DNA of 32,000 bases from Celeribacter marinus (GCF_001308265.1 NZ_CP012023.1:602932-634931), one strand, 5' to 3'; positions 10,552 to 30,839 are shown, counted from the first letter of the stretch. Notes: generated from the sequence alone by a model not told the origin. Numbers and translations are program-made.

Positions 10552-11447
10552 CCACGCAAACGTCCCACCCGCTCAAAGCGGCCGTCTGGATGTCGGGGGC
10601 GGTGTTCGGATTTTCATCCATGGCCGTGCTGGGGCGCAAACTCACACTTGATCTCGATACCTTTGAAATCATGGCGTATCGCTCCCTCATCGGTGTGTTC
10701 ACTGTGCTGATCATCTCAACACTGGCGGGCACGCGCGGCCAAATTCGTGCCCGCGCCCTACCGCTGCACTTGGGCCGCAACATCTCGCATTTTACTGGCC
10801 AAAACCTGTGGCTGTTCGCGCTGACCCTGATCCCCTTGGCGCAGCTGTTCGCGCTTGAGTTCGCCTATCCGATCCTTGTGGCACTTGGCGCGAGCCTGTT
10901 TTTGGGCGAACGCCTGACACCGCTGCGCGGCGCCACGGCTCTGCTCGGATTTATCGGCATCTTGATCGTCGCACAGCCCTTTGGCGCGGGCGGTCTGTCC
11001 ATTGGCCTGTTGGCCGCGATGGCCTGTGCCTTTGGCTTTGCCGGATCGGCGCTGTTTACCAAGCGCCTGACCCGCCGCCCCGATGGTACGGTGACCAACA
11101 TCTTGTTCTGGCTGTCCCTTATGCAACTTGGCCTCGGGGTCGGCTGTGCAATGATGGACGGCCAGATGAAACTGTTCACCACCGCGCAACTGCCGCTTTT
11201 GACGCTATTCGCCCTTGCGGGACTGGGCGCGCATTTTTGCCTGACCACCGCGCTTAGCCTCGCGCCCGCCTCCGTGGTCACGCCCATTGATTTCTTGCGC
11301 CTGCCCCTGATCGCGCTGATCGCCTACGTGCTCTATGGGGAGGCGACAACATGGGCGACATATATCGGGGCGAGCGTGATTTTCGGGGCAAATTACATCA
11401 ATATCTTGTCTGAATCGCGCAAATCACGGGCCGCGCGCCCTGTTTAG
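10548..11447 (+). CDS. DMT-superfamily (EamA-like) transporter
   Basis: The ATG at 10548 overlaps the preceding TGA (ATGA). The protein is hydrophobic with about 10 TM segments and a two-fold EamA-like organisation. Confidence 0.85.
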   Translation: MTTQTSHPLKAAVWMSGAVFGFSSMAVLGRKLTLDLDTFEIMAYRSLIGVFTVLIISTLAGTRGQIRARALPLHLGRNISHFTGQNLWLFALTLIPLAQLFALEFAYPILVALGASLFLGERLTPLRGATALLGFIGILIVAQPFGAGGLSIGLLAAMACAFGFAGSALFTKRLTRRPDGTVTNILFWLSLMQLGLGVGCAMMDGQMKLFTTAQLPLLTLFALAGLGAHFCLTTALSLAPASVVTPIDFLRLPLIALIAYVLYGEATTWATYIGASVIFGANYINILSESRKSRAARPV

Positions 11448-11642
11448 CCCCGTTTTAACGGGGCGCGGTGTGTCATAACGGCGTTGCGCACAAACCACGA
11501 CAGAGGATTTTGACGCGGCGTTAGAATTGCGTCATCGGCGAATCCTCGCTTAGACTTTAACGAGATCTGACGTGAGGAGACACGTTGGACAAAAAAACAA
11601 AAAAAACGATCACGAGCCCAGTGCTCGAAAAGGGATGAGATT

Positions 11643-17617: not shown

Positions 17618-18238
17618 ATGGTTAAAAAACGCGGCTATCACCACGGCAATTTGCGTCAGGCTCTCGTCGATGCAGCACTTGGGCTGATCGAGGAAAAAGG
17701 TCCGACCGGCTTCACCCTTTCAGAGGCGGCGAAAACCGCCGGTGTGACCCCTGCTGCGGTCTACCGCCATTTTGAGGGCCGCGAAGATCTGATCGCGGAG
17801 ATCGCCCAACAAGGCTATGAGGTATTCGCGGACTTGCTCGATTACGCCTACTCAACGGGTCAGCCCTCCGCGCTGGCCAGTTTCGAGGCCGTGGGGCGCG
17901 CCTATCTGGCCTTTGCCCGCAAATATCCGGGGCATTATGTGGCGATGTTCGAAAGCTCGATTTCGATCCAACGCACGCCGGACCTCTACAAGGTCGCGAC
18001 CCGTGCGCATGGCGTTTTGGAACATGCCGCCGAAGAGCTGTCAAAGCACATTCCCGCCGAAAACCGCCCCCCGCCACAGATGTTCGCCGCTCACATCTGG
18101 GCGATGAGCCATGGCGTTGTCGAACTCTTTGCACGCAACAGCCCCGGCACCAAAAGCCCCTTCCCGCCCGAAGATCTTTTAGAGACCGGTATCGGCATCT
18201 ATTTGCGTGGATTGGGGTTGTTGCCCACGGATAGCTGA
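17618..18238 (+). CDS. TetR/AcrR-family transcriptional regulator
   Basis: N-terminal HTH 'FTLSEAAKTAGVTPAAVYRHFEGREDL'. The gene starts 5 nt after the ppk2 stop. Confidence 0.9.
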   Translation: MVKKRGYHHGNLRQALVDAALGLIEEKGPTGFTLSEAAKTAGVTPAAVYRHFEGREDLIAEIAQQGYEVFADLLDYAYSTGQPSALASFEAVGRAYLAFARKYPGHYVAMFESSISIQRTPDLYKVATRAHGVLEHAAEELSKHIPAENRPPPQMFAAHIWAMSHGVVELFARNSPGTKSPFPPEDLLETGIGIYLRGLGLLPTDS

Positions 18239-18287
18239 CAGCGCGCGCGACGAGCGACACCTGACAACAAACCCCATTATCCAAACG

Positions 18288-18318
18288 AAAAAGGCCACCC
18301 GCAAAGGTGGCCTTTTCC
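18288..18318. terminator. Bidirectional hairpin terminator (stronger on the minus strand)
   Basis: aaggccacc (18291-18299) pairs with ggtggcctt (18306-18314). On the minus strand the stem is followed by tttttcgttt; on the plus strand only by tttt. Confidence 0.7.
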
Positions 18319-18353
18319 AATTCTGATATCCAGTAAAGCGGATTAACGCTTAG
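18312..18353. repeat. Left border repeat: displaced native rpsI 3' end (candidate attL)
   Basis: The left tract cttttccaat...cagtaaagcgg attaacgcttag matches 29743-29793 (cttttccaat...cagtataagcga...attaacgcttag). The 12-nt core at 18342-18353 is identical and contains a stop codon plus 'KR' codons on the minus strand. Confidence 0.55.
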
Positions 18354-18403
18354 CTAAGTTAGTATCTTTATTAACATATTTATATCAATATGTTACGCTA
18401 CTA

Positions 18404-18423
18404 AAATGCTTCATGTAAATAAT
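18404..18423. repeat. Perfect 20-nt direct repeat aaatgcttcatgtaaataat (left copy)
   Basis: Identical to 29680-29699. It is followed by a second atgtaaat sub-repeat at 18424-18431. Confidence 0.85.
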
Positions 18424-18463
18424 ATGTAAATCATCCACCGCGCATGCTTTGAAAAGCTGTTAG

Positions 18464-18886
18464 CTAACTGGAACGTGCTTTCGTAACAAACGCAACAGCC
18501 TTGTCCAACTCGCCAGCTATCGCAGCCTGTTTAAAAGCGTCAAGCACGCCAGCAACATCGTCCAACTTGTCCACAAATACAGCGTTACTTTTGCCGTTAA
18601 TGTTCAAAACGCGACTGCCGTAACGGCACTGCACATAGTAACCCGCGTCTTGCTCAAAAAACCAAGCGCGTACCCGCTTTTCATGCTCAACGCGTACGCG
18701 CTCACCTGCGTCATTTGTCTGCCAGCGCTTCGATTTTACCGTATATTCGTCGCCAGCCAAAACAGCAGCAAGCACCCTGCCCTGTTCTTCAATCGCCGCA
18801 ACCAGCTTTTCACGTCGTGCAAGTACGGGGTCTTGTTTCACAGTACGTTGCACGGTCTTCAAGTTCAGTTTTGCAATATAGCTCAT
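18464..18886 (-). CDS. Island hypothetical protein (140 aa)
   Basis: Clean ATG-initiated ORF. I recall similar ~140-aa proteins in other integrative islands but cannot verify this. No motif recognised. Confidence 0.55.
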   Translation of the reverse strand: MSYIAKLNLKTVQRTVKQDPVLARREKLVAAIEEQGRVLAAVLAGDEYTVKSKRWQTNDAGERVRVEHEKRVRAWFFEQDAGYYVQCRYGSRVLNINGKSNAVFVDKLDDVAGVLDAFKQAAIAGELDKAVAFVTKARSS

Positions 18887-18954
18887 TTCAACAGCTCCTA
18901 ATATTGAATGCTGCCGCTACTATATTTTCAGACCAAAAGCATAACGACCTGAAA

Positions 18955-19734
18955 TCAGATGTATTTTTCTACCTTTGAAAAGTAGATTGTACGGGTCGGT
19001 ACAGAACCGAATTCTCTTTCATACCTGCCTACTCCCCCCATGTAGAGGCCATAGTGAAAAATATTCAAGTTCCTGTCAGTTCCGAACATTGTTTTTGTAT
19101 TTTCATCAAGCACTGTTTGGCCATTGAGCTTAGCTTTATAGAAGCCGTCGTTGGCCCAATGCACATCCAAATCGATAGTATTCCATCTGCCGAAAATATC
19201 ACTGCTTTTCGCAAGTTTGACCTTTTCCCTGCCAGTAGCAGTTGCAAACTCAGCGTAGAGCCAACTCACAGACTTCTGCCAACCCATCACGTTAACCATT
19301 AGCGGAACGTTAGGTGCACCTTTTTCAAAAAATTGAAAAATGTGGGTAAAGGGTCCTCCAATACGTTGATTGCTAGGTAGGAAGAAACTGATTGAGTATG
19401 AGGCGCGTTGATTCATTTCACCACCTAAGTCCATCCTCTCATACCGTTGCCGATCAGTTTGGCAGTCGACACCGCCACAATCTCCATGCCTCAATTCAAA
19501 ACGTTCAAGCTCGGAACTCGAAGCGGTTCCGGTAAAGTCCGGCACAACAGAATATGCATAATTAGCTGTAGAATTTCGTTCGTGCAGTGTCCAATTTCCA
19601 AATGCATTTTTGGGTGACCCGCGTGTGATCAGAGATCCATTTCCACCTACATTTTCAGAAACACATCCAGCTAGGCTGACGGTTGACGCCAACGCTCCGG
19701 TTACGAACCCACGCCTACCCAATAACATTGCCAT
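18955..19734 (-). CDS. Putative secreted lipoprotein, concanavalin-like / polysaccharide-lyase-like fold
   Basis: From Met28 of the track ORF the protein starts 'MAMLLGRRGFVTGALASTVSLAGC', which reads as a twin-arginine-like signal plus lipobox LAGC. 'FELRHGDCGG..CQTDRQRYE' resembles the N-terminal strand motif of the heparin-lyase-I-type polysaccharide lyase family (from memory). Confidence 0.45.
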   Translation of the reverse strand: MAMLLGRRGFVTGALASTVSLAGCVSENVGGNGSLITRGSPKNAFGNWTLHERNSTANYAYSVVPDFTGTASSSELERFELRHGDCGGVDCQTDRQRYERMDLGGEMNQRASYSISFFLPSNQRIGGPFTHIFQFFEKGAPNVPLMVNVMGWQKSVSWLYAEFATATGREKVKLAKSSDIFGRWNTIDLDVHWANDGFYKAKLNGQTVLDENTKTMFGTDRNLNIFHYGLYMGGVGRYEREFGSVPTRTIYFSKVEKYI

Positions 19735-19917
19735 ATACCCATCTAAATATTTGATCTTGTTTCCATAATGCACAACCCGCATTCGCAATGCAACGCGGGA
19801 ACCCGACGCACTCACAGCAGTGCAATGGAGCCGGAAATAGTCCTCCTAGTTCGCTATTTCAGAAACATCACCACCTTTGCTGACAAAGGATAAATACCTG
19901 CGAAAGGAACCGCAGTT

Positions 19918-20547
19918 ATGTTGCAAAGGAAAATCAATGCAGCTTGGGAGTACTGGCTAGAAAAGGACGATTGGAACGTTTTTGCGACGTTGAACTTTGG
20001 CCATCTGTCACTTTTGGAAGGCAATCGAAGCGACGCAGCTGGAAAACTTTGGCGCAGCTGCTTGTCTACAGTCGACCGCGCCGTTTACGGCCAAACAAGA
20101 AAGAACCAGCCTCGCTTTAATCGCGTCGCATTTAGACACAGTGGGGCAAACGGAACGAACCCGCATGTCCATATTCTACTAAGATCACCTATTCCAACGC
20201 ATGAATTCTGCGTGGCGCTTAACGCAATATGGGCGACGAAGTTTGCTCCCGCCGCAAATCCTGTAAGCAACTCCATCGCCCCAATTATCACTGTCAAAGG
20301 CGCAATAGGTTACGGACAACACGAAGAATTTAGGAACGACATTGGTGCTTTTGACGACAGGCTAAGTCACAGCACTTTGGGGCCAGCGCATCATGTTCGC
20401 GCTGATGCTCTGCAAAGGCTCCATGCTCAGGCATCTAAGGCAAATTTAGTTAAGGCACGATTGGCATTGCCCGATCATATTAAAACTACTCAGGCAAATT
20501 TTGATCGACGCGAACGTATGAGGGTTGCAGCACTGCTGTGCGTTTAG
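19918..20547 (+). CDS. HUH-motif Rep-like protein (putative rolling-circle replication initiator or relaxase-like nuclease)
   Basis: Motif-1-like 'VFATLNF', HUH motif 'NPHVHILL' and downstream Tyr candidates ('AIGYGQHEEF'). 209 aa. Confidence 0.45.
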   Translation: MLQRKINAAWEYWLEKDDWNVFATLNFGHLSLLEGNRSDAAGKLWRSCLSTVDRAVYGQTRKNQPRFNRVAFRHSGANGTNPHVHILLRSPIPTHEFCVALNAIWATKFAPAANPVSNSIAPIITVKGAIGYGQHEEFRNDIGAFDDRLSHSTLGPAHHVRADALQRLHAQASKANLVKARLALPDHIKTTQANFDRRERMRVAALLCV

Positions 20548-20683
20548 ACCTAGCATCTAGCACCACTAAGAATTTTTGCATGTGGCTTGGTTTTCCAAGT
20601 CACATCCTTGTTGTGCGTAAAACAATTAACACAAAACACATCAGTTCAAACCGACAACGGTAAATACACAGAGGCATTAGACG

Positions 20684-20971
20684 ATGACACTACTTGAAAC
20701 GACATACAGCCATTTGCGCAAAGCCGGACTTGTTAGCTGCGCGGAAGCGTTCAGCACCAGTTATTTGGGCAAGAACAAAAACTGGTACGCTTTCCAAACG
20801 CACAGCGAGCGCGATTTTAGCGTTGGCGCTGCTGTGCAGTGTTTGCGCTCAATACGCTCCAATAAAGCGCTTGCTGGCTTGGACACACAGCAAAGAGCGG
20901 CGCTGGATGGAGCTGAGCGTGATTTGCTGGCCCATTTGAACAAAATGTACTTGGTAGCAGACGTGATCTAA
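20684..20971 (+). CDS. Island hypothetical protein (95 aa)
   Basis: ATG-initiated ORF with the same orientation as its neighbours. No motif recognised. Confidence 0.45.
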   Translation: MTLLETTYSHLRKAGLVSCAEAFSTSYLGKNKNWYAFQTHSERDFSVGAAVQCLRSIRSNKALAGLDTQQRAALDGAERDLLAHLNKMYLVADVI

Positions 20972-21118
20972 AATGTTATAGAATTACTAATCCATAACAT
21001 TGTCACTCAATCTCAAGCAAAAACAGTGACTTGCTGAAATTTCAAAATCAGGTCGTTTTGCGAAATGTTATATATTACAATCACTTACAACAAAACCACA
21101 TGTTGTAGGGATAAGATA

Positions 21119-21697
21119 ATGAAACAAGCCAAGCTCCTATCAGATGCTGAACGCAAACGCCTTGCCGCAGTGATCGACAGCAAGCGCTACGCAACGCGCA
21201 ACCACACAGCCGTAGCGCTCAGCTTTTACGCGGGCCTACGTGCTTGCGAGATTGCTTGGCTGCGTATTGGTGATGTTTTCGAAGCTGGTAGCGCTGTGCG
21301 TGACACGATTTACCTGAGCGCAGCGCAAACGAAGGGCAGCTCGGGCAATACTGTATTGGTGAACAAAAAGCTGGCGACAGCGCTCAAGCGTTATGCTGCT
21401 GCTTACCCCAAACGCCTTCAGCAGCCAAATGTACCCGTCTTGTTCTCCGCAAAAGGATCGGGCTTTACAGCGCAGACGACTGTGAACCTGTTTCAAACGC
21501 TCTACAAAGCCGCAGCAATTGACGGTGCCAGCTCGCACAGCGGTCGGCGTCAATTTGTAACCGAGCTAGCTGACAAAGGGGTAAATGCCCGCGTTGTACA
21601 AGCACTAGCTCGGCACAAGCATTTGAACACGACCATGCGCTACATTGATTTAAACGAAAATAAGATGAGGGCGGCTGTTGAGCTGATCAACTACTGA
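21119..21697 (+). CDS. Small tyrosine recombinase (catalytic domain only, ~192 aa)
   Basis: The ATG at 21119 is preferred (MKQAKLLSDAERKRL...). Catalytic signature: 'GLRACEI' (Arg), 'SSHSGRRQF' (H-x-x-R) and 'ARHKHLNTTMRYID' (His...Tyr). No N-terminal core-binding domain is present. Confidence 0.8.
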   Translation: MKQAKLLSDAERKRLAAVIDSKRYATRNHTAVALSFYAGLRACEIAWLRIGDVFEAGSAVRDTIYLSAAQTKGSSGNTVLVNKKLATALKRYAAAYPKRLQQPNVPVLFSAKGSGFTAQTTVNLFQTLYKAAAIDGASSHSGRRQFVTELADKGVNARVVQALARHKHLNTTMRYIDLNENKMRAAVELINY

Positions 21698-22203
21698 AAC
21701 TTGTGCTGTTGTGCTAGAACGGCAAGCTCTTTGTTTAATTTGGGACTTGCCAAATGTTGACCCCATTTCCAAACGCAGTATTCAGACGTGCAATCAACAA
21801 TTCCCGCTTTCCTCAGTGCTTCAAAGTTTCCCTTACCTATTTTGCTTATGGGCTTTAACTGCTCGACCATAGCGCCCAAGTACCCGTGCTTTTCAATTAA
21901 TCGTTGCGATTTTTTGTCTATTTTTTCAACTGCTATCACAGCATGCCAAATCCGTTCTGCAACGCTATCCTCAACAAGTTGGTTGCCGCTCACTTGCGCT
22001 GGACTGCTGACTTGTGACTGAATAATTCGCACACCAGCATACCGCGCAACTTGACGCATTGCTTCACTGCCTTCTGGACCATGTGCTCTTGACCAAAAGC
22101 CCTCTAACGACTTCTGATCTGTAAGACTATCTAGCTCCGCAATTTCATCAGAGTATTTTTCGCGCAAATCGGACAATGCAGGGAGTGGATCTTTATATAT
22201 CAT
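21691..22203 (-). CDS. Island hypothetical protein (170 aa)
   Basis: ATG-initiated ORF. Its convergent end overlaps the recombinase gene by 7 nt. No motif recognised. Confidence 0.5.
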   Translation of the reverse strand: MIYKDPLPALSDLREKYSDEIAELDSLTDQKSLEGFWSRAHGPEGSEAMRQVARYAGVRIIQSQVSSPAQVSGNQLVEDSVAERIWHAVIAVEKIDKKSQRLIEKHGYLGAMVEQLKPISKIGKGNFEALRKAGIVDCTSEYCVWKWGQHLASPKLNKELAVLAQQHKFQ

Positions 22204-22644
22204 GGTGTGTAGCGCCTTATAACAACGACATTTTCACCAATCACGCTACGCAGAACGCTAGCTCCTTACAACAATTTTCACTATGCCTCTCAACCCCAAG
22301 CGCAACCTTCTCGTGCAGAACATAACGACCAGCATTTACCTGCGTTTTTGACCCAAAACCATGTGCTATCAAGTTAGGCGCACAGGCTTAACTGGCTTTT
22401 TGGCGTCGAGCTTACGTTCTTTACTTTTAAGCTTTCGTGCATTCTTCTCAAAGTCAGTCGTCTGTGCACGTTTGGCGCGTTTCGGCGTGCTTTTTAGTCC
22501 TGCGTTATAGTCCAATATCTCCCATATGTGCAAAATCACCACCTCAAATCTGTAAGTACTTCCCTACTTGAAACTGCGCTGTAAAACTTTTGTCAGCTAA
22601 CAACCCCTTCAAGCGTTAAATATTTATGCACGAAAAATTTACGC

Positions 22645-23274
22645 CTAAAATTCGTCGTCTTCCATCTGCTTTAGAAATTCCTCTAGCCGTGACTTCGCTT
22701 CGCTTGTGTTTTCCCTGTCTGTCCCAGCCGCTTCACGCTCCAAGCCGCGTATTGCCCACTCAACTACGTCAAGCTTTAAGTCTCGCTTCGAGCGTTTATT
22801 GCTCAGCAAACCGCCGCCATCGCTTTCCAGGCTCCTGCTTGTAATAACCATCGGTACTGTACCGGGAGTTAGCCCTAGTGTACTGCTGTCCGTGTCTCTA
22901 TCAAACCAAAGACGCAGCCCAGCATCTGCTGCGATGATCTCATCCAAGTAAACGTGCAGTCGTTCAAAAAGCGTGTCGGCCTGTGCAAAATGCTTTTGCG
23001 CCACCTTGCTCTTGCCGCGCGTACTAGCGCCCTCACCTTTGTTGTAGACAAACGTCGCTTTTCGCAATCGCGCTTCGTATTCCCGCACCTCATCCGGTTT
23101 ATCTTTTAACTCAGCACGCAGCTCTTTTTGATCAGACCAGGCTTGCACGTAACTGGCAAAATCCTCTTCAGTCAACCAAGCTCGCAACTGCCTGTTTTGG
23201 ACAATAGCCCCACCTGCTAGCTTGGCCGCTATCTTGCGCAGTTTCTTTAATCGAACTTCAGGTTTGTGTGCCAT
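22645..23274 (-). CDS. Island hypothetical protein (209 aa, charged and helical)
   Basis: ATG-initiated ORF with a basic N-terminus and an acidic C-terminus ('MEDDEF'). No motif recognised. Confidence 0.5.
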   Translation of the reverse strand: MAHKPEVRLKKLRKIAAKLAGGAIVQNRQLRAWLTEEDFASYVQAWSDQKELRAELKDKPDEVREYEARLRKATFVYNKGEGASTRGKSKVAQKHFAQADTLFERLHVYLDEIIAADAGLRLWFDRDTDSSTLGLTPGTVPMVITSRSLESDGGGLLSNKRSKRDLKLDVVEWAIRGLEREAAGTDRENTSEAKSRLEEFLKQMEDDEF

Positions 23275-23940
23275 AGCTCACCTTCAAACAGTTACTGAGG
23301 TCCATCACATTCGCACCCGCAAATAGAATTCAACCCTTCATAATCGGGTCAGAGCTCGATCCAAACTATCTGCCAGGGAGTAGTTAGCCAAACACAAAAG
23401 AGCACGGTTTTGTTACGCCTGACGCGCAGTACCTGGGTCACTACAACACATGAATCTAGCACCGCGCAATTCACAACCGGCACCTCCATTCACTTACGCA
23501 GCACGCCAACCCAAAACTGGCCGCACGACCTAATTGAAAGTCTAGGGCTGCATGTGCGACAGGAATGGCGCATCCGGCAAACCAGAGATGGCACACAAAG
23601 AAGGCATGATTGATTGAACGGCAGACTAGGCACCTAATGAACTGATGCGCATCATGTTTTACCTTGAATTGCTTCCACGGCTGGCTCATGCTTCAATGAA
23701 ATGACGAAGAAATTTTGATCAGTTTTGTCTTTTTTATAGTTTGGCACATATGAGGTTTTGCATCGAATGACGCGGGTATTTTCCCAAAAGGCGGGGCTTT
23801 GAATAACAATTTTGCCGCGGTATTTGTATATGCTCGAGAGGCAGCGATCCGTCTGGACTTAACCTGGAATCATAATTGGACGAGCTTTTTCCGCCGCACC
23901 CTCAGCATCACTGCGAGGAGAAAAAGCCATCGCACAGGCG

Positions 23941-23971
23941 TTGACAATCATCATACACGGCATCATATGAT
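23941..23971 (+). promoter_or_regulatory. Candidate sigma70-type promoter with overlapping 10-bp palindrome upstream of the three-gene operon
   Basis: TTGACA (23941-23946), a 19-nt spacer, then TATGAT (23966-23971). The perfect palindrome atcatatgat (23962-23971) overlaps the -10 element. The ATG at 24004 follows gaagggg (23991-23997). Confidence 0.3.
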
Positions 23972-24003
23972 ACCACGACAGCATCGTGCCGAAGGGGTGC
24001 GCG

Positions 24004-24360
24004 ATGTCAATTGACAGTGGATTACGCAAGGAGCTTGCAAAGTTTTGCAGTAGTAAGCGGACTTATCGAAGTGACTTTTCACCGACCATGCCAACTCACT
24101 GGTCGCCACAACACGTTAGACATCCCGATACAGGAGAAGCATTCACTGACCCGGGAGCTTGGCGTTTTGTAAAAGATTTGTTGGAAGCCGGGCATCCTGT
24201 TGAAGTAATCACACTCGATAAACCGCCTGGAAAGAAAGGTTACGTCCTAAAGTGCAAAGGCTACTCCTCGGAAATAATCTATATCAAGTTGCAGATTTTG
24301 TCCGGTTTTGTGATCGGCCGGAGTTTTCATGTGAGCGTAGTTAGAGAAAAACAACAATGA
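24004..24360 (+). CDS. Putative toxin, MqsR/RelE-fold-like (weak similarity)
   Basis: 118 aa from the ATG at 24004, which has a good SD. The C-terminal 'IIYIKLQILSGFVIGRSFHVS' resembles the terminal strands of MqsR ('VYLKITVIHDVLIVSFKEK'). The stop overlaps the next start (ATGA), in the toxin-first order of mqsRA. Confidence 0.45.
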   Translation: MSIDSGLRKELAKFCSSKRTYRSDFSPTMPTHWSPQHVRHPDTGEAFTDPGAWRFVKDLLEAGHPVEVITLDKPPGKKGYVLKCKGYSSEIIYIKLQILSGFVIGRSFHVSVVREKQQ

Positions 24361-24851
24361 CAAATAATGTAAATAAAGACACATGTATTGTATGCGGAGC
24401 GGCGGCTGTCGAAATCCAGACAATGACGCAGCAATTCGCTTACGCTGACAAGAACAGGGATGTTCTTTTGACGGCAGATGTACCTGTCGAGCACTGCCAT
24501 GAGTGTGGTGAAATACTGCTTGGAGTACAGGGTCAGATTGCACAGCATGAAGCGGTTTGTAGCTATCTTGGACGCTTGTCACCAGCCGAGATCAAGGAGA
24601 TCCGTACAGGAATGAAGCTCTCACAACTGGCTTTTGCAGAAAGAATAAATGCTGGTGTCGCTTCAGTTAAGCGCTGGGAAACTGGGATGGTAATCCAAAA
24701 CGCATCAATGGACCGTATCTTGCGTCAGGTAAACGACGAGGCCGACATTCCGATGCAAAGACGCGCACGAATTACGCCAGTCTTTAGAACTGAAATTAAG
24801 CCGCACATGCTAGCTGCGTCCAAGTTATTTCAGTTGCGCCCGAGCGGTTAA
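24357..24851 (+). CDS. MqsA/YgiT-family antitoxin (zinc ribbon + XRE-type HTH) with ~39-aa C-terminal extension
   Basis: CxxCG (C10,C13) ... CxxCGE (C47,C50), then 'LSPAEIKEIRTGMKLSQLAFAERINAGVASVKRWETG', which is the CxxCG_CxxCG_HTH architecture of MqsA. Residues 126-164 have no counterpart in the 131-aa E. coli MqsA. Confidence 0.8.
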   Translation: MTNNVNKDTCIVCGAAAVEIQTMTQQFAYADKNRDVLLTADVPVEHCHECGEILLGVQGQIAQHEAVCSYLGRLSPAEIKEIRTGMKLSQLAFAERINAGVASVKRWETGMVIQNASMDRILRQVNDEADIPMQRRARITPVFRTEIKPHMLAASKLFQLRPSG

Positions 24852-24857
24852 CGCAAC

Positions 24858-26705
24858 ATGTATACCATCACATTCTATTCGTACAAAGGCGGCGTCGGAC
24901 GCACCATGGCCTTGGCAAACGTTGCTACGCTCCTCGCTCAGAAAGGCAAGCGTGTCCTCCTTGTCGATTTTGATCTCGAAGCGCCTAGCTTGCCAAATTA
25001 TGGCGGACTTTCTGACCTAGTCATTAAACATGGACTTGTTGACTACATCTCGGCTTATCGAGAGACGGGCAAAGCGCCAGATGTGGCGGAGCACATCTAT
25101 AAATGCCACCAAGACGGCAATCCGATCTGGATAATGCCAGCAGGCGATACATCAACAAAAGACTATTCCAGAAAACTAGCCTCGATAGACTGGCAAACGC
25201 TTTATGACGATGAAAAAGGATATTTATTTTTCGAGGATCTGAAACAACAATGGCAAGTTTTCGAACAAGAGGGATTTGATTACGTCCTTATTGACAGTCG
25301 AACTGGACATACTGATGTTGGTGGTGTGTGCACACGTCACTTGCCGGATTTGGTAGTTGCTATGTATCTTCCGACGATGCAGAACATATCAGGGATGGCG
25401 CCTATCATTGGTGAAATCCGGAATGAAAAGTCCCGAGCTAGCAACCCAGTTGAACTGGTGTTTTGCGCGTCTAATGTGCCGGAACTTGACGATGAGCAGC
25501 AAATACTCAGTGATCTATTGAGGACAGCATCAGATCGGCTCGACTACGAGGCTAATGCACTGAATATTGTCCATCACTATGGCAGCTTACACGTGCTTTC
25601 ACATGCGATCTTCGTTCAAGATAGGCCGAACTCACGCCTTGCTAAGGAATATAATAGCCTCGCGCGCAGCGTCATATCTCACAACTTAGAAGACGCTGAC
25701 GGAGCAAAATTGGCTTTGCAGCGAATTATTCGGGAAGACATTCGCAGCCCTCAAACTAAATCAAAGAATACTCGGGATGAACTTGCGGCAAAGGTTGATC
25801 AAATCTTTTCGAGGCACAGGCATAACAGTGAGATATCAAACCTCGTTGCGCGAGTTCGTTCTGCAATTGGTGACTTCGAAGGTGAAATTTCAGCGTTGAC
25901 CAACGCAATCGAGTTGGGTGACGGAGGGGCCGGTCTGCGCTTTCGTCGAGCTCGTGCGTATCAGGCAATAAACATGACAGATAGGTCTGTCGAAGATCTT
26001 CGGCACATCCTCAAACATGAGAGGGTTACGGGCGCTGAATTGACAGCGGCATTGAGAATGTTGGAAAGGACCGACAAACAGTATGATGATGTATTAGATC
26101 AGCTTCTGGAGCGTAGCGATTTAGATCTTCCAATGTTAAATTCGATAGCGGAGGTTGCTCAACGAAACAGGCGACACCTTAGAAAGTTTGCGGACCATTT
26201 AACCCGCACTATAGCACGCAAAGAAGAATCGGAAAAAGAGAGAGCCTACGCCAACCATCACCTTGGACTTGCACTTATTGGCTGTAGTCGGTTTGATGAA
26301 GCTGATGCGAAGCTGGATTCAACTTCAGAAGCATCCAAGCTCGACCTGCCGAACAGGTTCAACCACTTCATCGCAATGTGGGGTGCGTCTGGGACGCCCG
26401 ATATAGGTATCGCGCATGAATTGCACGAAGTGATGTCTTTTAGAAAATCTCCAAGAGATGACGCTAACTTCCTGCAATGCCAAGCGGTCATTAACGCTGT
26501 TCTGGGTGACCACAAAGAGGCATTAGCAGCATTGGATCATGCTGATGAAGTTGCACAAAGTCTAGGAGGGCGGATATTTAGTTGCTCCTCCTACCTCTAC
26601 CTTGAAACTGAGGCATTTGTTCAGGAAAATGAGCAGCTTCGCAGTGCAATAAAAGAGAACGATCAGGTATCACTACGTATCTTCAATTCATCCAGTCAAA
26701 ACTAA
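24858..26705 (+). CDS. ParA/MinD-fold ATPase with variant Walker A (KGGVGRT) fused to a C-terminal TPR-like helical-repeat domain
   Basis: 'FYSYKGGVGRTMALANVA' is a deviant Walker A with Arg in the P-loop Lys position. 'VLLVDFDLEAP' is switch-like and 'DYVLIDSRTG' is Walker B. From about residue 330 there are TPR-like units ('RFRRARAYQAINMTDRSVEDLRHIL', 'ANHHLGLALIGCSRFDEADAKLD', 'FLQCQAVINAVLGDHKEALAALDHADEV'). The gene starts 6 nt after the antitoxin stop. Confidence 0.8.
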   Translation: MYTITFYSYKGGVGRTMALANVATLLAQKGKRVLLVDFDLEAPSLPNYGGLSDLVIKHGLVDYISAYRETGKAPDVAEHIYKCHQDGNPIWIMPAGDTSTKDYSRKLASIDWQTLYDDEKGYLFFEDLKQQWQVFEQEGFDYVLIDSRTGHTDVGGVCTRHLPDLVVAMYLPTMQNISGMAPIIGEIRNEKSRASNPVELVFCASNVPELDDEQQILSDLLRTASDRLDYEANALNIVHHYGSLHVLSHAIFVQDRPNSRLAKEYNSLARSVISHNLEDADGAKLALQRIIREDIRSPQTKSKNTRDELAAKVDQIFSRHRHNSEISNLVARVRSAIGDFEGEISALTNAIELGDGGAGLRFRRARAYQAINMTDRSVEDLRHILKHERVTGAELTAALRMLERTDKQYDDVLDQLLERSDLDLPMLNSIAEVAQRNRRHLRKFADHLTRTIARKEESEKERAYANHHLGLALIGCSRFDEADAKLDSTSEASKLDLPNRFNHFIAMWGASGTPDIGIAHELHEVMSFRKSPRDDANFLQCQAVINAVLGDHKEALAALDHADEVAQSLGGRIFSCSSYLYLETEAFVQENEQLRSAIKENDQVSLRIFNSSSQN

Positions 26706-27065
26706 ATTTTGGAAATTGAAGCCGTCTCATAGAAGTTCAGCAACTTGATGAACGCTATAATCTATCTGCAGTCTGGTGCTACCAACGACCGCCCTCTCTG
26801 GGAGCACCAAGGCATCCGATCGCCTAAACAACGACTGCCTGACGTCGGTGCTTAGCTTTGAGTTTGGCTGACAGATTGCAGTTATAAAAGCGAAAAAGTG
26901 CACGGTTTCTTTACGCTTATAATAGATAGATGAGCAGCTTTCGCATGCTTAAACTAGGGTCGCTAAGCCCCCAACCTGCGCCTTCATACGCCAGCATAGC
27001 TGACCGCACCTAAGACGCGCTGTACGCAGCAATTTGACGCCTGTGTGTTACTTCAAAGTTTGAAG

Positions 27066-27116
27066 TTAGCGCATGCGTTTTGCAGCCAGCTCCATCGCTT
27101 CAAGCTTTTTGCGTGC
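27066..27116 (-). pseudogene. Remnant of the 3' end of a second, related integrase gene
   Basis: The minus-strand reading gives ARKKLEAMELAAKRMR*, compared with the intact integrase C-terminus ARRKLDAMQSAAKRRR*. The DNA includes an identical 14-mer tgcgttttgcagcc and roughly 80% identity over ~50 nt against 28220-28270. Nothing upstream is homologous. Confidence 0.5.
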
Positions 27117-27163
27117 CCTGTTGACTACAATCAATCTGGTTAAAGCACAGAAGATCTTTTTGG

Positions 27164-27928
27164 CTAGACTGGCTCAACATGACAATTAGTGAGCTGTCCA
27201 CCACCAAAACCGAACCAAGCCCAATTACCAGTAACGAGATAAACGTCATCCGGTTCTGCATCTATAAGAATATCGACCACGTAACCGCCTTTTAGCAAGA
27301 TACATTCAAACCTGTGGAAGCGAGATTCGAACCGAGCATAGGGGTCAAGTATGCCATTGTGAAGCGAAACGAATTCTAAACGATCCATAAAAACCCCATA
27401 ACGATAATCGCGGTTAAAACGTGGTTTGTTCTGATCGAATACATCCCGCAATTCTCTGTAATCATCAGCTGTATACTTAACTGCTGCATCAAGAGTATCT
27501 CCATGCTCTCGAAATAAACTATATTGTCTCAAGTCACTAAAACCGGTTGACTGAAAGTCAACAAGACTTTCAAATCCAAAACGCCCATAACGCTCAAGTT
27601 CATCTAGAGAACTAAAGCCTGTTTTCTGAAAATCGGCCAACGTTTCGATTCCCTTACTGCTGTAAAGTTCGTACTCTGCAAGGGTTGAAAAGCCAGTCGC
27701 CTCAAATTCAGCCAATGTCTCGAGCCCTGACACCCGATAACGGTCATACTCTTCGAGCGTTGAAAAGCCAGTCGCCTCAAATTCCGCCATAGTTCCAATC
27801 CCATAGTTCTGGTATCGGTTCCACTCAATGATCGATGAAAAGCCACCTTCGGTTCTTACCTTTTCAAAGTAGAAAAACACAGTAGCCGACAGAGCTGCAA
27901 TGGCAGCAAAAGCAAATACCTTCTTCAT
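27164..27928 (-). CDS. Secreted or membrane-anchored tandem-repeat protein (254 aa)
   Basis: The N-terminal hydrophobic 'MKKVFAFAAIAALSATVFFYF' is followed by four 25-aa repeats (G[IL]xT[LM]AEFEATGFSTLxEYxxY...). The 75-bp DNA period is shown by an identical 26-mer at 27684-27709 and 27759-27784. Confidence 0.65.
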   Translation of the reverse strand: MKKVFAFAAIAALSATVFFYFEKVRTEGGFSSIIEWNRYQNYGIGTMAEFEATGFSTLEEYDRYRVSGLETLAEFEATGFSTLAEYELYSSKGIETLADFQKTGFSSLDELERYGRFGFESLVDFQSTGFSDLRQYSLFREHGDTLDAAVKYTADDYRELRDVFDQNKPRFNRDYRYGVFMDRLEFVSLHNGILDPYARFESRFHRFECILLKGGYVVDILIDAEPDDVYLVTGNWAWFGFGGGQLTNCHVEPV

Positions 27929-28219
27929 TTTAGTCCTTTTGGAAAATTTATAGCATCGATACCGACAAGAAACGCTACACTACTGTACAAGGCCGGTAAA
28001 AATTCACCCATCACCGACGATGGGAACCAAGTTTATATAATCGTCACGCTTTTGTTTAAAACTCATTGTCCTAGTCGACCTTGTCAACACCGTATGCAAC
28101 TCAAATCACAAAATAAACGCAGATTTGCACTCCTGCTTTTTGGGGCTTGGCCTTATTAGTCCGTCGCACTTCGAAAACCGCCATCCTATTTTTAACAATG
28201 TCTTGACCTACTCATCTAG

Positions 28220-29614
28220 TCAGCGCCTGCGTTTTGCAGCCGACTGCATCGCATCAAGCTTCCTTCGCGCCCGTTCCGCTTCCGTTGCGCCAGTCGCCGC
28301 CACGCCGCGCTGCACAGCCCTGCCCTCCGTACTCAGCAATACGTCCACGTCCATCAGCATGCCTTTGCGCACGTAATGATCATCAATTTGCTTTCGGCTC
28401 GTACCCATATTTTCAGCCAGCATGTCGTACGTTGCTAAATTGTAGCCCATGTCCCTAAAGCGTTCTTCCGCATAGTAATGCCTCAAGCTGTAAGCCGTGC
28501 GTCGATCACCATTTTCGTCATACAGCAAGCCAGCTTCTTCAAGCATTTTGGGCAAAGTTTTATAAAATCCGTTGTTCTGCTTGCCGCTTGCATCACAAAA
28601 CACCCAATCGTTTGCATCAGTATGCCCCGTAAGCTTGCAAAGCTGTTGATAATGAACGTTCAAAAAGTAATGTGATCGTACAATCCGCGTGCCCGTTTTA
28701 GTGTTTTTGGGCACAATTATCTCCAAGTACTGCTGGCCCTTATCACTTGTTTTAACTGAAATATCTTTGTGCTTAAGCTGCAAAACTTCGCCTGTGCGCA
28801 TGCCTGTTTCAGCAAGCCATGTAAGATAAAATTTGAGCAGCTGACGGTTATATTTGTGCGCCGAGTTAACCCGCTCGTCGCTTACGCCTCTGCCATCAAC
28901 CCATCGCTGCATGTAATCCTGCAACTCCATGTATTCAGCATGTGAAAACGAAGGACGCCTTTTTGCTGCAATGCCCTGCCGTACAAAAGTGTTTTCAATA
29001 ATCGGCATGTGCAAAATAAGCTTCATGCTGTTCGCCCAGCCAAATATTTCACGCAAAGCGCTCTGCTCCATGTCCATGCTTTTTTTAGCTGGTTGCAGCG
29101 CATGATTGGCGTGTCGTTTGCGCTCAGCTTCGTCCGCCCTCGCCCAATACGTCATGCGCCAGTTCCAATAACCCTGCACAAATGCATGTGTCATCTCGTC
29201 CAGCTTCATAGTGCCAAAATATGGTAGCCAGTAACGCTGTGCGTGTTTCTCGTACCACGTAACGCGTTGCGAAATTCCATTTCTGCCTTTTGCATGTTGC
29301 AATGCTTCAAGCCGTTGCCGCTTATCAGCCCACCAAATCACGTATAAATCTTCAAACGTCAGCTGTTTGACTGGCTCTTTTTTCTTAGCACGCAAGCGCA
29401 AGTCGTCGTATTTGTCCAAAGCGTACCGTCTCGCTTCTTCTAAATCGGTTTCGCCCGTACTTTCCTGTACATAGGTGACCTTGTTTCCATAAACGTCCTG
29501 CATGCCCCGTACGTGTATGCGCATGTGATAAATGGGCCGTTTTGCATGCTGACGATGAAAAAGAATGATTTGGCCGTCTTTAAGCTCGACTTTGTTCAAG
29601 TAACTTTTGCTCAT
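28220..29614 (-). CDS. int: Tyrosine-type site-specific integrase
   Basis: 464 aa. Catalytic signature: 'ETGMRTGEV' (Arg), 'AYSLRHYYA' (R-H box) and 'MGTSRKQIDDHYVR' (Tyr). It is adjacent to the island border repeats. Confidence 0.92.
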   Translation of the reverse strand: MSKSYLNKVELKDGQIILFHRQHAKRPIYHMRIHVRGMQDVYGNKVTYVQESTGETDLEEARRYALDKYDDLRLRAKKKEPVKQLTFEDLYVIWWADKRQRLEALQHAKGRNGISQRVTWYEKHAQRYWLPYFGTMKLDEMTHAFVQGYWNWRMTYWARADEAERKRHANHALQPAKKSMDMEQSALREIFGWANSMKLILHMPIIENTFVRQGIAAKRRPSFSHAEYMELQDYMQRWVDGRGVSDERVNSAHKYNRQLLKFYLTWLAETGMRTGEVLQLKHKDISVKTSDKGQQYLEIIVPKNTKTGTRIVRSHYFLNVHYQQLCKLTGHTDANDWVFCDASGKQNNGFYKTLPKMLEEAGLLYDENGDRRTAYSLRHYYAEERFRDMGYNLATYDMLAENMGTSRKQIDDHYVRKGMLMDVDVLLSTEGRAVQRGVAATGATEAERARRKLDAMQSAAKRRR

Positions 29615-29679
29615 AGCAGTGCCGCCAGTATCATTTCCTTGTAAAACTACTGTAAAAGCAGCAGCATTATCTGTCTATC

Positions 29680-29699
29680 AAATGCTTCATGTAAATAAT
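29680..29699. repeat. Perfect 20-nt direct repeat aaatgcttcatgtaaataat (right copy)
   Basis: Identical to 18404-18423. It lies 65 nt beyond the integrase start codon. Confidence 0.85.
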
Positions 29700-29714
29700 C
29701 TGTCAAACCCATAA

Positions 29715-29750
29715 ACAAAGAAAAAGCGCAGTAAAAACTGCGCTTTTCCA
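29715..29750 (-). terminator. Rho-independent terminator currently serving rpsI (island-side, AT-rich)
   Basis: aaaagcgcag (29722-29731) pairs with ctgcgctttt (29738-29747). On the minus strand the stem is followed by tttttcttt. It lies 35 nt downstream of the rpsI stop. Confidence 0.65.
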
Positions 29751-29793
29751 ATAATTTAGCATTTTCAGTATAAGCGAAAAAATTAACGCTTAG
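29743..29793. repeat. Right border repeat overlapping the functional rpsI stop (candidate attR)
   Basis: This is the partner of 18312-18353. The core attaacgcttag at 29782-29793 includes the rpsI stop codon (29783-29785) and its last three codons. Confidence 0.55.
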
Positions 29794-30268
29794 AGAACTG
29801 GAAGCTCTTACGGGCTTTTGCACGACCGAACTTTTTACGCTCAACAACGCGGCTGTCGCGTGTGATGAAGCCTGCAGCTTTCAAAGCGGCACGCAGTTCG
29901 GGGTTGTAAAGCTGAAGTGCTTTGGAGATGCCGTGCTTAACCGCGCCAGCCTGACCGGAGAGGCCACCACCTTTGACAGTTGCAACAACGTCAAACTCGC
30001 CTTCAACGCCTGCAACCTGCGATGGCTGCTTGACGATCAGCTGAAGGACGGGACGGGCAAAATAAACAGGCATATCTTTGCCGTTTACTGTGACCTTGCC
30101 GGAACCCGGCTTGATCCAAACGCGTGCAACCGCGTCTTTACGCTTGCCTGTCGCATAAGCGCGGCCAAGGGCGTCACGAACGGGTTCACGGGGGGCAGCA
30201 ACTTCGATTGTTGCTTCGCCACCGGCGACGGCATTAAGCTCGTCGAGGGATTTGATTTCATCAACCAT
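29783..30268 (-). CDS. rpsI: 30S ribosomal protein S9
   Basis: '[19 protein letters not shown]' and C-terminal 'RKSFQFSKR'. 161 aa, immediately downstream of rplM. Confidence 0.97.
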
Positions 30269-30270
30269 GA

Positions 30271-30735
30271 TTATGCGCTCCGAGTGTTTTTCTTGTTCAT
30301 GGACTTAACGTCCAGGACTTCGGGCTTTTGTGCCTCGTGAGGATGCTCGGTGCCTGCATAGACGCGCAGGTTTGTCATCAATTGGCGCGACAGCTTGTTG
30401 CCCGGAAGCATACGCTGAACAGCTTTGACCATGAGACGCTCGGGGTGTTTGCCCTCAAGGATCTGACCAGCTGTACGCTGCTTGATACCGCCCGGATAAC
30501 CGGTGTGCCAGTAGTGGATTTTGTCGGTGCGTTTTTTGCCCGTCATCTGCACTTTATCAGCGTTGATGATGATCACGTTGTCGCCCATGTCGATGGACGG
30601 TGTGAATGTGGCCTTGTGCTTGCCACGCAAACGCATGGCGACGATAGACGCGAGACGACCAAGAACAACGCCTTCAGCGTCGATGATGATCCATTTCTTG
30701 TCCACGTCCGCCGGAGTAGCGGTGAAAGTGTTCAT
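30271..30735 (-). CDS. rplM: 50S ribosomal protein L13
   Basis: The protein starts at Met24 of the track ORF ([30 protein letters not shown]...). 154 aa, the canonical L13 N-terminus. Confidence 0.97.
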
Positions 30736-30839
30736 ATTATAGCCCTTTGGGGTCGAGAATTCAGATTGGGGTGTTCTATAGGTTCTGCACGCACAGTCAA
30801 GCACCGCGAAGCTTCAATAATCCATTAAAAACAGGCACT

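Follow-up and report, generated by a model that had tools for sequence, protein, structure and literature searches.

The window analysed here is a 32,000-nucleotide stretch of the Celeribacter marinus chromosome (GCF_001308265.1 NZ_CP012023.1:602932-634931), in which an AT-rich island adjoins rpsI, the gene for ribosomal protein S9. This island is very probably an 11,440-bp integrative element that entered the chromosome by means of its own lambda-type tyrosine integrase (Int) and regenerated the 3' end of rpsI from its attP site. It would represent an integrative genetic element, or genomic island, devoid of conjugation and phage genes, and would have inserted by Int-mediated site-specific recombination at the extreme 3' end of rpsI, at AAGCG. 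Integration would leave the S9 protein unchanged and replace the third base of the Arg codon, the stop codon, the 3' untranslated region (UTR) and the terminator by element sequence, the native bidirectional terminator being displaced by 11.4 kb and remaining with tetR.

The 12-mer ATTAACGCTTAG was found by sequence search of the window at 18342-18353 and again at 29782-29793. Read on the rpsI strand it is CT AAG CGT TAA T, corresponding to two bases of a Ser codon, the Lys and Arg codons, the stop codon and one extra base. The rpsI-proximal copy (29782-29793, minus strand), or B-O-P junction, covers the end of the functional gene: its 8 final coding bases, its stop codon and 1 nt more. The far-end copy (18342-18353, minus strand), or P'-O-B junction, is identical and represents the displaced native rpsI end, CTAAGCGTTAAT in rpsI sense. 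Between them, the unique part of the island (18354-29781) is AT-rich and missing from empty-site genomes; its G+C content ranges from 0.44 to 0.49 against 0.54 to 0.60 outside, with a clear step at the borders. The host genes are in order on both sides: rpsI (29783-30268, minus strand, 161 aa; PF00380, E = 2.7e-47) is intact, rplM lies upstream of it (30271-30804, minus strand), and tetR (17618-18238) converges with a PPK2 gene on rplM-rpsI from the left. An earlier note, written from the sequence alone, had reported both 12-mers, an integrase abutting the right border and a longer imperfect repeat around the two copies, and had asked for a composition profile; the two cores and the integrase are where it placed them and the composition is not native-like. 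Its description of the 12-mer as the stop plus the last three codons came close, but the match covers just two bases of the Ser codon and runs one base past the stop.

Empty and occupied assemblies were gathered by look-up of the exact TetR and RpsI proteins. An empty site, with a tetR-rpsI spacing of 103 bp and a single copy of the core, was found in related Celeribacter assemblies (L001, L003-L009, L011 and L016), while two further assemblies were occupied (L002 and L012/L034/L035); GCA_900114275.1 is an occupied C. marinus genome. The empty-site sequence was that of the window up to 18353 fused to 29794 onward, precisely the joined flanks that the earlier note had proposed to search for when it placed recombination within the last codons of rpsI. 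The flanks of L001 were 97.3-99.0% identical to the window, and its alignment ended at 18353 and restarted at 29782, 12 bp being common to both segments. The insertion is therefore precise and amounts to 11,440 bp, one core copy included (18354-29793). The S9 protein was identical in occupied and empty genomes. The inner repeat of about 20 nt (18404-18430 and 29680-29706, 25 of 27 positions identical), named beforehand as a junction that would speak against the 12-mer, was ruled out as the true att site: since in the empty sites the junction falls in the 12-mer, and the inner repeats lie wholly within inserted DNA, excision and integration map to the 12-mer. In the two independent occupied drafts L002 and L012, contigs break inside the island at about 26700-26800, between the ATPase gene and the 254-aa open reading frame (ORF) described below, which may be due to internal repeats D2 and D3.

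The crossover could be narrowed down with five elements for which both ends were present on one contig (the window, L032, L030, L046 and L052). The identical segments of their att pairs were CTAAGCGTTAAT, CCAAGCGCTAA, CCAAGCG, AAGCGCT and CGAAGCG. Their sole common stretch is AAGCG, consisting of the Lys codon and two bases of the Arg codon, and as judged from these att pairs the crossover maps to about this segment. The in-use and displaced gene ends differ in three of the elements: L030 uses CGT TAA against a displaced CGC TGA, L052 uses the Arg codon CGT against CGC, and L046 uses the stop TAA against TGA, with a further difference in the Ser third base on the other side. In all three, the displaced copy carries the G+C-rich variant and is followed by a G+C-rich native terminator; the sequence from the Arg third base onward, including the stop codon and all that lies past it, therefore comes from the element, as the earlier note had suggested in assigning gene end and terminator to an attP-borne mimic. 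In the window the replaced coding bases are the same as the native ones, and the actual change concerns the 3' UTR and the terminator. Two of the five elements, L030 and L032, have decayed. At 11396-11450 and 11991-12050 of L032, two displaced rpsI ends come one after the other behind a truncated int; each has its own hairpin, which suggests repeated integrations at this site. An N-terminal int fragment was also observed upstream of an attP-type junction in L042.

The terminator exchange is best followed from the hairpins. The native one (18286-18319, minus strand), with a G+C-rich core, is the putative terminator, in both directions, of rpsI and of tetR, which converges on it, with folding energies of -24.9 kcal/mol in rpsI sense and -18.3 kcal/mol in tetR sense. 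It stands directly after rpsI in the empty sites and is now 11.4 kb away from it, in agreement with the displacement postulated beforehand. The element provides an intrinsic-terminator hairpin (29720-29749, minus strand) between rpsI and int, with a 13-bp stem and a T-run, which was identified by terminator scan and folds at -20.4 kcal/mol in rpsI sense (z = -6.9) and at -15.6 kcal/mol in the opposite sense. Measured to the base of the full stem, the native hairpin lies 23 nt past the stop codon and the element hairpin 33 nt. The earlier note was right that a hairpin accompanies each core copy, that the left one is G+C-rich and stronger on the minus strand and that the right one shares the AT-richness of the island; its distances of 28 and 35 nt were approximate.

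A hairpin of this type was present in all 16 elements examined, with 13-14 bp and a T-run, about 35 nt after the stop codon, and energies from -19 to -24 kcal/mol. Four distinct stem sequences were distinguished, in which six stem positions had changed on both sides with all pairs remaining canonical, and L036 and L037 displayed two additional variants. MAFFT put the 3' arms of the sphingomonad hairpins out of register, and pairs were counted from each sequence's own fold. Such compensatory changes are evolutionary evidence for selection on the hairpin structure. The orientation of the element hairpin and its distance from the stop match those of native rpsI terminators. Transcripts are predicted to terminate at this hairpin, which probably ends the highly expressed rplM-rpsI messenger and shields int from read-through. 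It is also conceivable, although we regard it as unlikely, that the hairpin is kept mainly for the needs of the element itself, such as insulation or regulation of int, or as the structure of a single-strand origin or nick site in rolling-circle replication. It is retained in a clade of about 6 kb that was seen only as free circles and never by rpsI, it lies directly upstream of the promoter-like hexamers of int, and HUH-like proteins are encoded in the backbone. Nevertheless, in every element the T-run comes after the stem when read in the direction of rpsI and int, the distance to the stop codon is about that of native rpsI terminators, and the free circles also keep the mimic of the rpsI end and are thus presumably integration-competent. 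Moreover, a role for the element and a role as replacement terminator are compatible with each other.

Similarity between the two borders extends beyond the 12-mer. The native flank and the element arm aligned with a score of 67, against 34.3 +/- 4.9 for shuffles (1 of 2000 reached 67), so the imperfect repeat of the earlier note does exist; native flanks from other genera scored 36 against the element arm. The native rpsI 3' flank (18260-18341) and the P arm (29700-29781) share CGCTT(A)TACTG, ATTGGAAAAG and a similarity past the hairpin (z about 6.7). From this pairwise similarity and the shared ATTGGAAAAG came the idea that the native Celeribacter rpsI-tetR spacer is the scar of an older element's P arm. 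It was unsupported: a profile built from 18 other P arms found the P arm of the window at E = 3e-37 and did not detect the native spacer. Shared ancestry, convergence or chance may be the cause of this similarity.

The recombinase gene itself, int (28220-29614, minus strand), is co-directional with rpsI, its start codon lying 168 nt past the rpsI stop. Its 464-aa product matched PF00589, PF14659 and phrog_1 integrase. An AlphaFold2 model (predicted local distance difference test, pLDDT, 81) consists of an N-terminal four-stranded sheet with a helix (residues 7-77), a core-binding domain and a catalytic domain; Foldseek matches comprised XerH, full-length lambda Int (among the best) and Tn1549 Int. 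Residues R273, K306, R378, H379 and Y414 were invariant in a 14-sequence alignment, with Tyr375 at the first His position, as assigned by motif position. The modelled architecture fits a heterobivalent lambda-type integrase.

Int is 100% identical to an NCBI protein of Celeribacter marinus, and its homologs formed more than 120 clusters with 44-82% identity. Scanning one genome per species yielded 15 loci of the int family, and in 14 of them the int homolog came directly after rplM-rpsI, its start lying about 170 nt past the rpsI stop codon. Nine of these loci belong to Rhodobacterales (Shimia, Rhodovulum, Sulfitobacter, Jannaschia, Marivita, Nioella, Pseudorhodobacter and uncultured relatives) and five to Sphingomonadales. 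By scanning metagenomes, 13 more contigs with this arrangement were found, and look-ups of two distant homologs contributed L037 and L039, which brings to 29 the other contigs, from Rhodobacterales and Sphingomonadales, that carry a family member directly downstream of rpsI. Among the loci examined, no other host gene was seen to adjoin a family member. All elements were AT-rich relative to their hosts, and both the named-organism homologs listed and all species-representative loci were alphaproteobacterial. In a Jannaschia element the int/attP module is about 90% identical to that of the window at the nucleotide level and the cargo is different, a similarity taken to reflect horizontal spread. 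The only species-representative locus without rpsI was L028, a 10.7-kb contig of Phaeovulum veldkampii: at 1640-1850, upstream of int, it displays an attP-type junction (gaatagCCAAGCGTTGAA and the conserved hairpin), and the contig shows no terminal overlap. A free element and a tandem junction are both conceivable.

Candidate arm-type sites were recognised as doublets of the form TGTAAA-N5-TGTMAA. With one mismatch allowed, four were present in the 32 kb against 0.23 expected, and none of 100 shuffles reached four. Three perfect doublets flank the core in the reconstructed attP, a single one in the P' arm and a pair in the P arm, all on the plus strand of the window. Doublet 1 of the P arm (29690-29706, TGTAAA-N5-TGTCAA) falls in the inner repeat and overlaps a promoter-like -35 hexamer of int; doublet 2 (29640-29656, TGTAAA-N5-TGTAAA) overlaps a promoter-like hexamer just upstream of the int start codon. 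The P'-arm doublet (18414-18430, TGTAAA-N5-TGTAAA) is oriented like those of the P arm, 61-77 nt from the core. Equivalents of the P-arm doublets were conserved in all relatives, the P' doublet of relatives lay at about the same distance from the core as in the window, and the hexamers were clade-specific (TTTACA, GTACA, TTAACA or TTTCAC), with both arms of any one element showing the same variant. By this pattern Int would bind the doublets as arm-type sites. In the rpsI direction, attP would be composed of a P' arm with one TTTACA-type doublet, the mimic (...AAGCGTTAA), a spacer of about 35 nt, the hairpin with its T-run, two doublets and int, and the junction expected for this element would read ...AACTTAG-CTAAGCGTTAAT-TTTTTCGC...

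The motif AAGCGYTAR occurs three times in the window, at both cores and as an inverted copy. The latter, the 9-mer AAGCGTTAA at 22611-22619 (plus strand), lies 14 nt from the fourth arm-like doublet (22580-22596), and the P-arm profile matches this region (22564-22620) with E = 0.015. A function as a second site was considered and discarded: the arrangement was kept in none of five relatives and is thus a relic or due to chance.

The backbone encodes a second tyrosine recombinase (21065-21697, plus strand; PF00589, E = 9.6e-21), a protein of 192-210 aa limited to the catalytic domain, which could itself be considered as the enzyme responsible. That recombination was carried out by this short protein, or at the inner repeat, instead of by Int at the 12-mer, is extremely improbable. 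The short recombinase is the most conserved backbone protein, and the near identity of the inner repeats would speak for that second version. On the other hand, the inner repeats are excluded by the empty sites as set out above, Int always adjoins the rpsI junction, Int divergence tracks doublet divergence, and the short protein has no DNA-binding N-terminal domains. It was 74-80% identical in sphingomonad elements in which Int was 51-54% identical. Likewise, it was 74-81% identical across L026, L027, L037, L039 and L046, where Int reached only 50-61%. Resolution, inversion or directionality are candidate roles for it.

Free forms of relatives were encountered as well. L036 (JGI 3300061608) showed an exact repeat period of 5,970 bp, and L058 and L061 had terminal overlaps of 127 and 123 nt with a length of about 5.98 kb. 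This clade of circles of about 5.97 kb (L036, L058, L061, L060 and L063-L066), whose Int is about 43% identical to that of the window, was never seen next to rpsI among the contigs examined. Its members carry Int, the short recombinase, DUF6641, an HUH-like protein of 307 aa and a complete attP in which the AAGCGTTAA mimic, hairpin and doublets are all kept; a check for DUF6626, made in L036 alone among the circles, found it annotated there. Within the clade to which the window's element belongs, contigs L041, L054 and L062 displayed the order DUF6641, P' arm, core, P arm, int, and their junctions are those of excised circles or of tandem copies. L054 and L062 are nearly identical, with two differing core bases, one of which distinguishes CTAAGCG from CCAAGCG. 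L053, whose Int is 98% identical to that of the window over its first 229 residues, also has a junction without rpsI. At 1100-1295 of L053, the core is preceded on its 5', P'-proximal side by 'ggctttcagttctcgAAGCGTTAA', a 21-nt rpsI-like stretch with no rpsI gene upstream, which may be a longer mimic or the relic of a displaced end.

Several observations weigh against the proposed integration by Int at the rpsI end. The 5 bp common to all att pairs is below the overlap region of 6-8 bp usual for tyrosine integrases, so that either some heterology is tolerated or some of the differences arose after integration. The P' doublet is inverted in L030 and not obvious in L032 and L028, and the terminator scan that flagged the element hairpin did not flag the native one. 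No excisionase was recognised among the small ORFs of the island. Look-up via Int and DUF6641 revealed this exact element solely in C. marinus assemblies and no circular form or attP junction of it. The island also holds internal relics, notably an int 3' end, so it is mosaic and could be partly decayed. This last relic (27069-27149, minus strand) is the C-terminus of a second integrase, 'ARKKLEAMELAAKRMR' followed by a stop, against 'ARRKLDAMQSAAKRRR' followed by a stop in Int; a 55-nt repeat (27064-27118 and 28218-28272) is 82% identical between the two places. It suggests, from the sequence, a past accretion or a replacement of the int module.

The relics, the missing excisionase and the restriction of this exact element to C. 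marinus assemblies, without an attP junction of its own, would also suit a fixed, immobile remnant, the polymorphism among strains reflecting a single old gain. We consider this quite improbable. The int gene is full length with conserved catalytic residues, the two cores match perfectly over 12 bp, none of the three doublets has a mismatch, the flanks differ by just 1-3% from empty-site genomes, and in L053 a nearly identical Int comes with a junction without rpsI. The integrative element inferred here, carried by its own Int, would presumably still be able to excise from the C. marinus chromosome.

Gene content was consistent with an element that is neither conjugative nor viral. The backbone, conserved and syntenic in relatives, comprises a DUF6641 protein, an HUH-like protein of 209 aa, a DUF6626 protein, the short tyrosine recombinase, a small basic ORF and a second protein of 209 aa. 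The DUF6641 protein (18464-18886, minus strand, 140 aa; PF20346, phrog_31551), by the far end, is directly upstream of attP in unintegrated junctions. The DUF6626 protein of 95 aa (20684-20971, plus strand) precedes the short recombinase, next to which the second 209-aa protein (22645-23274, minus strand) is 40-48% identical in relatives. The HUH-like protein (19918-20547, plus strand) displays the motifs FATLNF, PHVHIL and GYGxHEE, with T24, H85 and Y132 invariant and H83 nearly so, and is a candidate rolling-circle Rep or relaxase on the basis of these motifs. It had no sequence match in the PDB and no family match in Pfam, NCBIfam, PADLOC or PHROG; Foldseek returned weak fold matches, none significant, enriched for Rep nuclease domains. 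The 307-aa protein of L036 has FFLTAL, PHLHAIV and a YxxK motif, and a sub-threshold match to Rep_1. Rolling-circle replication or mobilisation would be the task of the HUH-like protein.

Cargo genes were also recognised. An MqsA-family antitoxin gene (24357-24851; PF15731, TIGR03830) and its upstream partner ORF (23986-24851 together, plus strand) are probably a toxin-antitoxin pair. Directly downstream of this pair lies the gene for a KGGVGR-motif AAA ATPase of 615 aa (24858-26705, plus strand; NF047398, E = 4.5e-50; PADLOC PDC-M28B, E = 4.5e-29), which by its family matches is a candidate defence protein, and together they may form a defence or addiction module. A polysaccharide-lyase-like lipoprotein (18955-19815, minus strand; PF14099, E = 6e-14) is not part of the backbone in relatives. 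A 254-aa ORF encodes a repeat protein for which no family was matched; it contains a tandem duplication of 75 nt (27663-27812, 73% identical) with repeated 'ATGFSTLEEY'-type peptides.

A type IV secretion system (T4SS) or coupling-protein family was not the best assignment for any of the 12 main island ORFs (at least 95 aa) or of the small ORFs checked, and sub-threshold VirC1 matches of the ATPase cover just the shared P-loop (residues 1-43). No relaxase family was matched among the island proteins either; an assignment as an integrative and mobilisable element would depend on the HUH-like protein as the sole relaxase candidate. With no T4SS, coupling protein or relaxase found, the island is not an integrative and conjugative element (ICE), for which 11.4 kb is also too small. 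A prophage remnant or phage satellite is very improbable too. A size of 11 kb and an int-first layout do resemble satellites, and the DUF6641 protein has a PHROG counterpart of unknown function. Families of capsid, terminase, primase or repressor proteins were not found in the island, though, and beyond the integrase and a ParA-like protein its PHROGs matches comprised just one family, of unknown function. Among 50,697 phage genomes, which should comprise those of Firmicute phages too, tblastn with Int gave no match, and IMG/VR held no relative. A phage, satellite or plasmid origin was accordingly discarded, plasmid matches being distant (at most 28% identity).

A broader reading can be offered as a tentative possibility, which we would not count as the expected outcome. 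The island would then be the integrated form of an undescribed and widespread family of integrative episomes of 6-12 kb from marine and freshwater Alphaproteobacteria, which share a backbone of Int, a mini tyrosine recombinase, DUF6626, DUF6641 and an HUH-type Rep, multiply as rolling circles in the free state, evolved rpsI targeting independently of Firmicutes, and bear an obligatory, selected terminator cassette. Such a cassette would restore termination of the essential rplM-rpsI operon and tie int expression to residual read-through from a growth-rate-controlled operon.

Islands in tRNA genes offer a familiar parallel to the mechanism. Integrases that target tRNA genes (P4, lambda-like islands) are heterobivalent and use arm-type sites, and their attP carries the 3' part of the target, so that the gene is regenerated. 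As in these islands, int lies by the intact gene and a displaced 3' fragment is found at the far end. Unlike them, the target here is protein-coding, only about 5-12 bp are shared, and the replaced part that matters for function consists of a stop codon, a 3' UTR and a terminator instead of a structural RNA.

Reports on elements at the end of rpsI itself come from Firmicutes. McRImecD-1 of Macrococcus caseolyticus has a tyrosine integrase by rpsI and integrates at the 3' end of the gene, with imperfect extended repeats and a displaced native rpsI end; strand exchange takes place in the first eight bases of att, the element is without transfer genes, and related integrases adjoin rpsI in other genera (PMC5341023). 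All these traits of target, integrase position, repeats, displaced end and lack of transfer genes recur in the window. McRImecD-1 differs in its Firmicute host, in its repeats (a 61-bp core within about 160 bp, compared with an exact match of 12 bp in the window) and in its cargo, mecD, and its circular excision was shown experimentally whereas the element of the window is known from sequence. Streptococcal integrative and mobilisable elements (IMEs) and ICEs of rpsI, such as IMESag-rpsI, involve three families of tyrosine integrases and form tandem accretions (PMC5357655, PMC4701971, PMC5090054, PMC5704250), so that the streptococcal integrations mentioned in the earlier note are documented; IMESag-rpsI carries a toxin-antitoxin pair and a Rep_Trans protein (PMC5357655, PMC4701971, PMC5704250). 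They resemble the window element in the gene end used, the small size (about 9 kb), the tyrosine integrase, the toxin-antitoxin pair (a probable one in the window) and a rolling-circle-type Rep, for which the window has a candidate, and their tandem accretions and decayed copies are paralleled by L032, L042 and possibly L028. Papers on Listeria prophages and on an Enterococcus faecium island also mention S9/rpsI. In contrast, they reside in Firmicutes, have defined relaxases (MobV, MobT) and were shown to be mobilised, and a backbone of short recombinase, DUF6626, DUF6641 and HUH-like protein is not described for them.

No report of rpsI targeting in Alphaproteobacteria was found in the full-text literature searched, where only Firmicutes are concerned, although the TIGER/Islander catalogue (PMC12424338) may list such islands; within these limits the statement of the earlier note that it is undescribed there still stands. 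A gene end carried by attP is thus an already known mechanism, and it is the integrase family and the backbone that are apparently undescribed. Targeting of rpsI likely arose independently in Alphaproteobacteria and Firmicutes.

The C-terminus of S9 (...SKR-stop) ranks among the most invariant short sequences of bacteria, and its apparent choice as a target in both groups is likely a case of convergence. The better-known conserved attachment sites of Alphaproteobacteria are tRNA genes and guaA, to which the last codons of rpsI can be added as a new conserved attB. The element of C. marinus also offers a natural example of gene-end repair, in which the coding end and the terminator of an essential and highly expressed operon are provided. 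Int and its short attB, present in many Rhodobacterales and Sphingomonadales, could be developed into an integration tool for marine alphaproteobacteria, and, as a predictable hotspot, the rpsI site can be screened for defence and toxin-antitoxin cargo.

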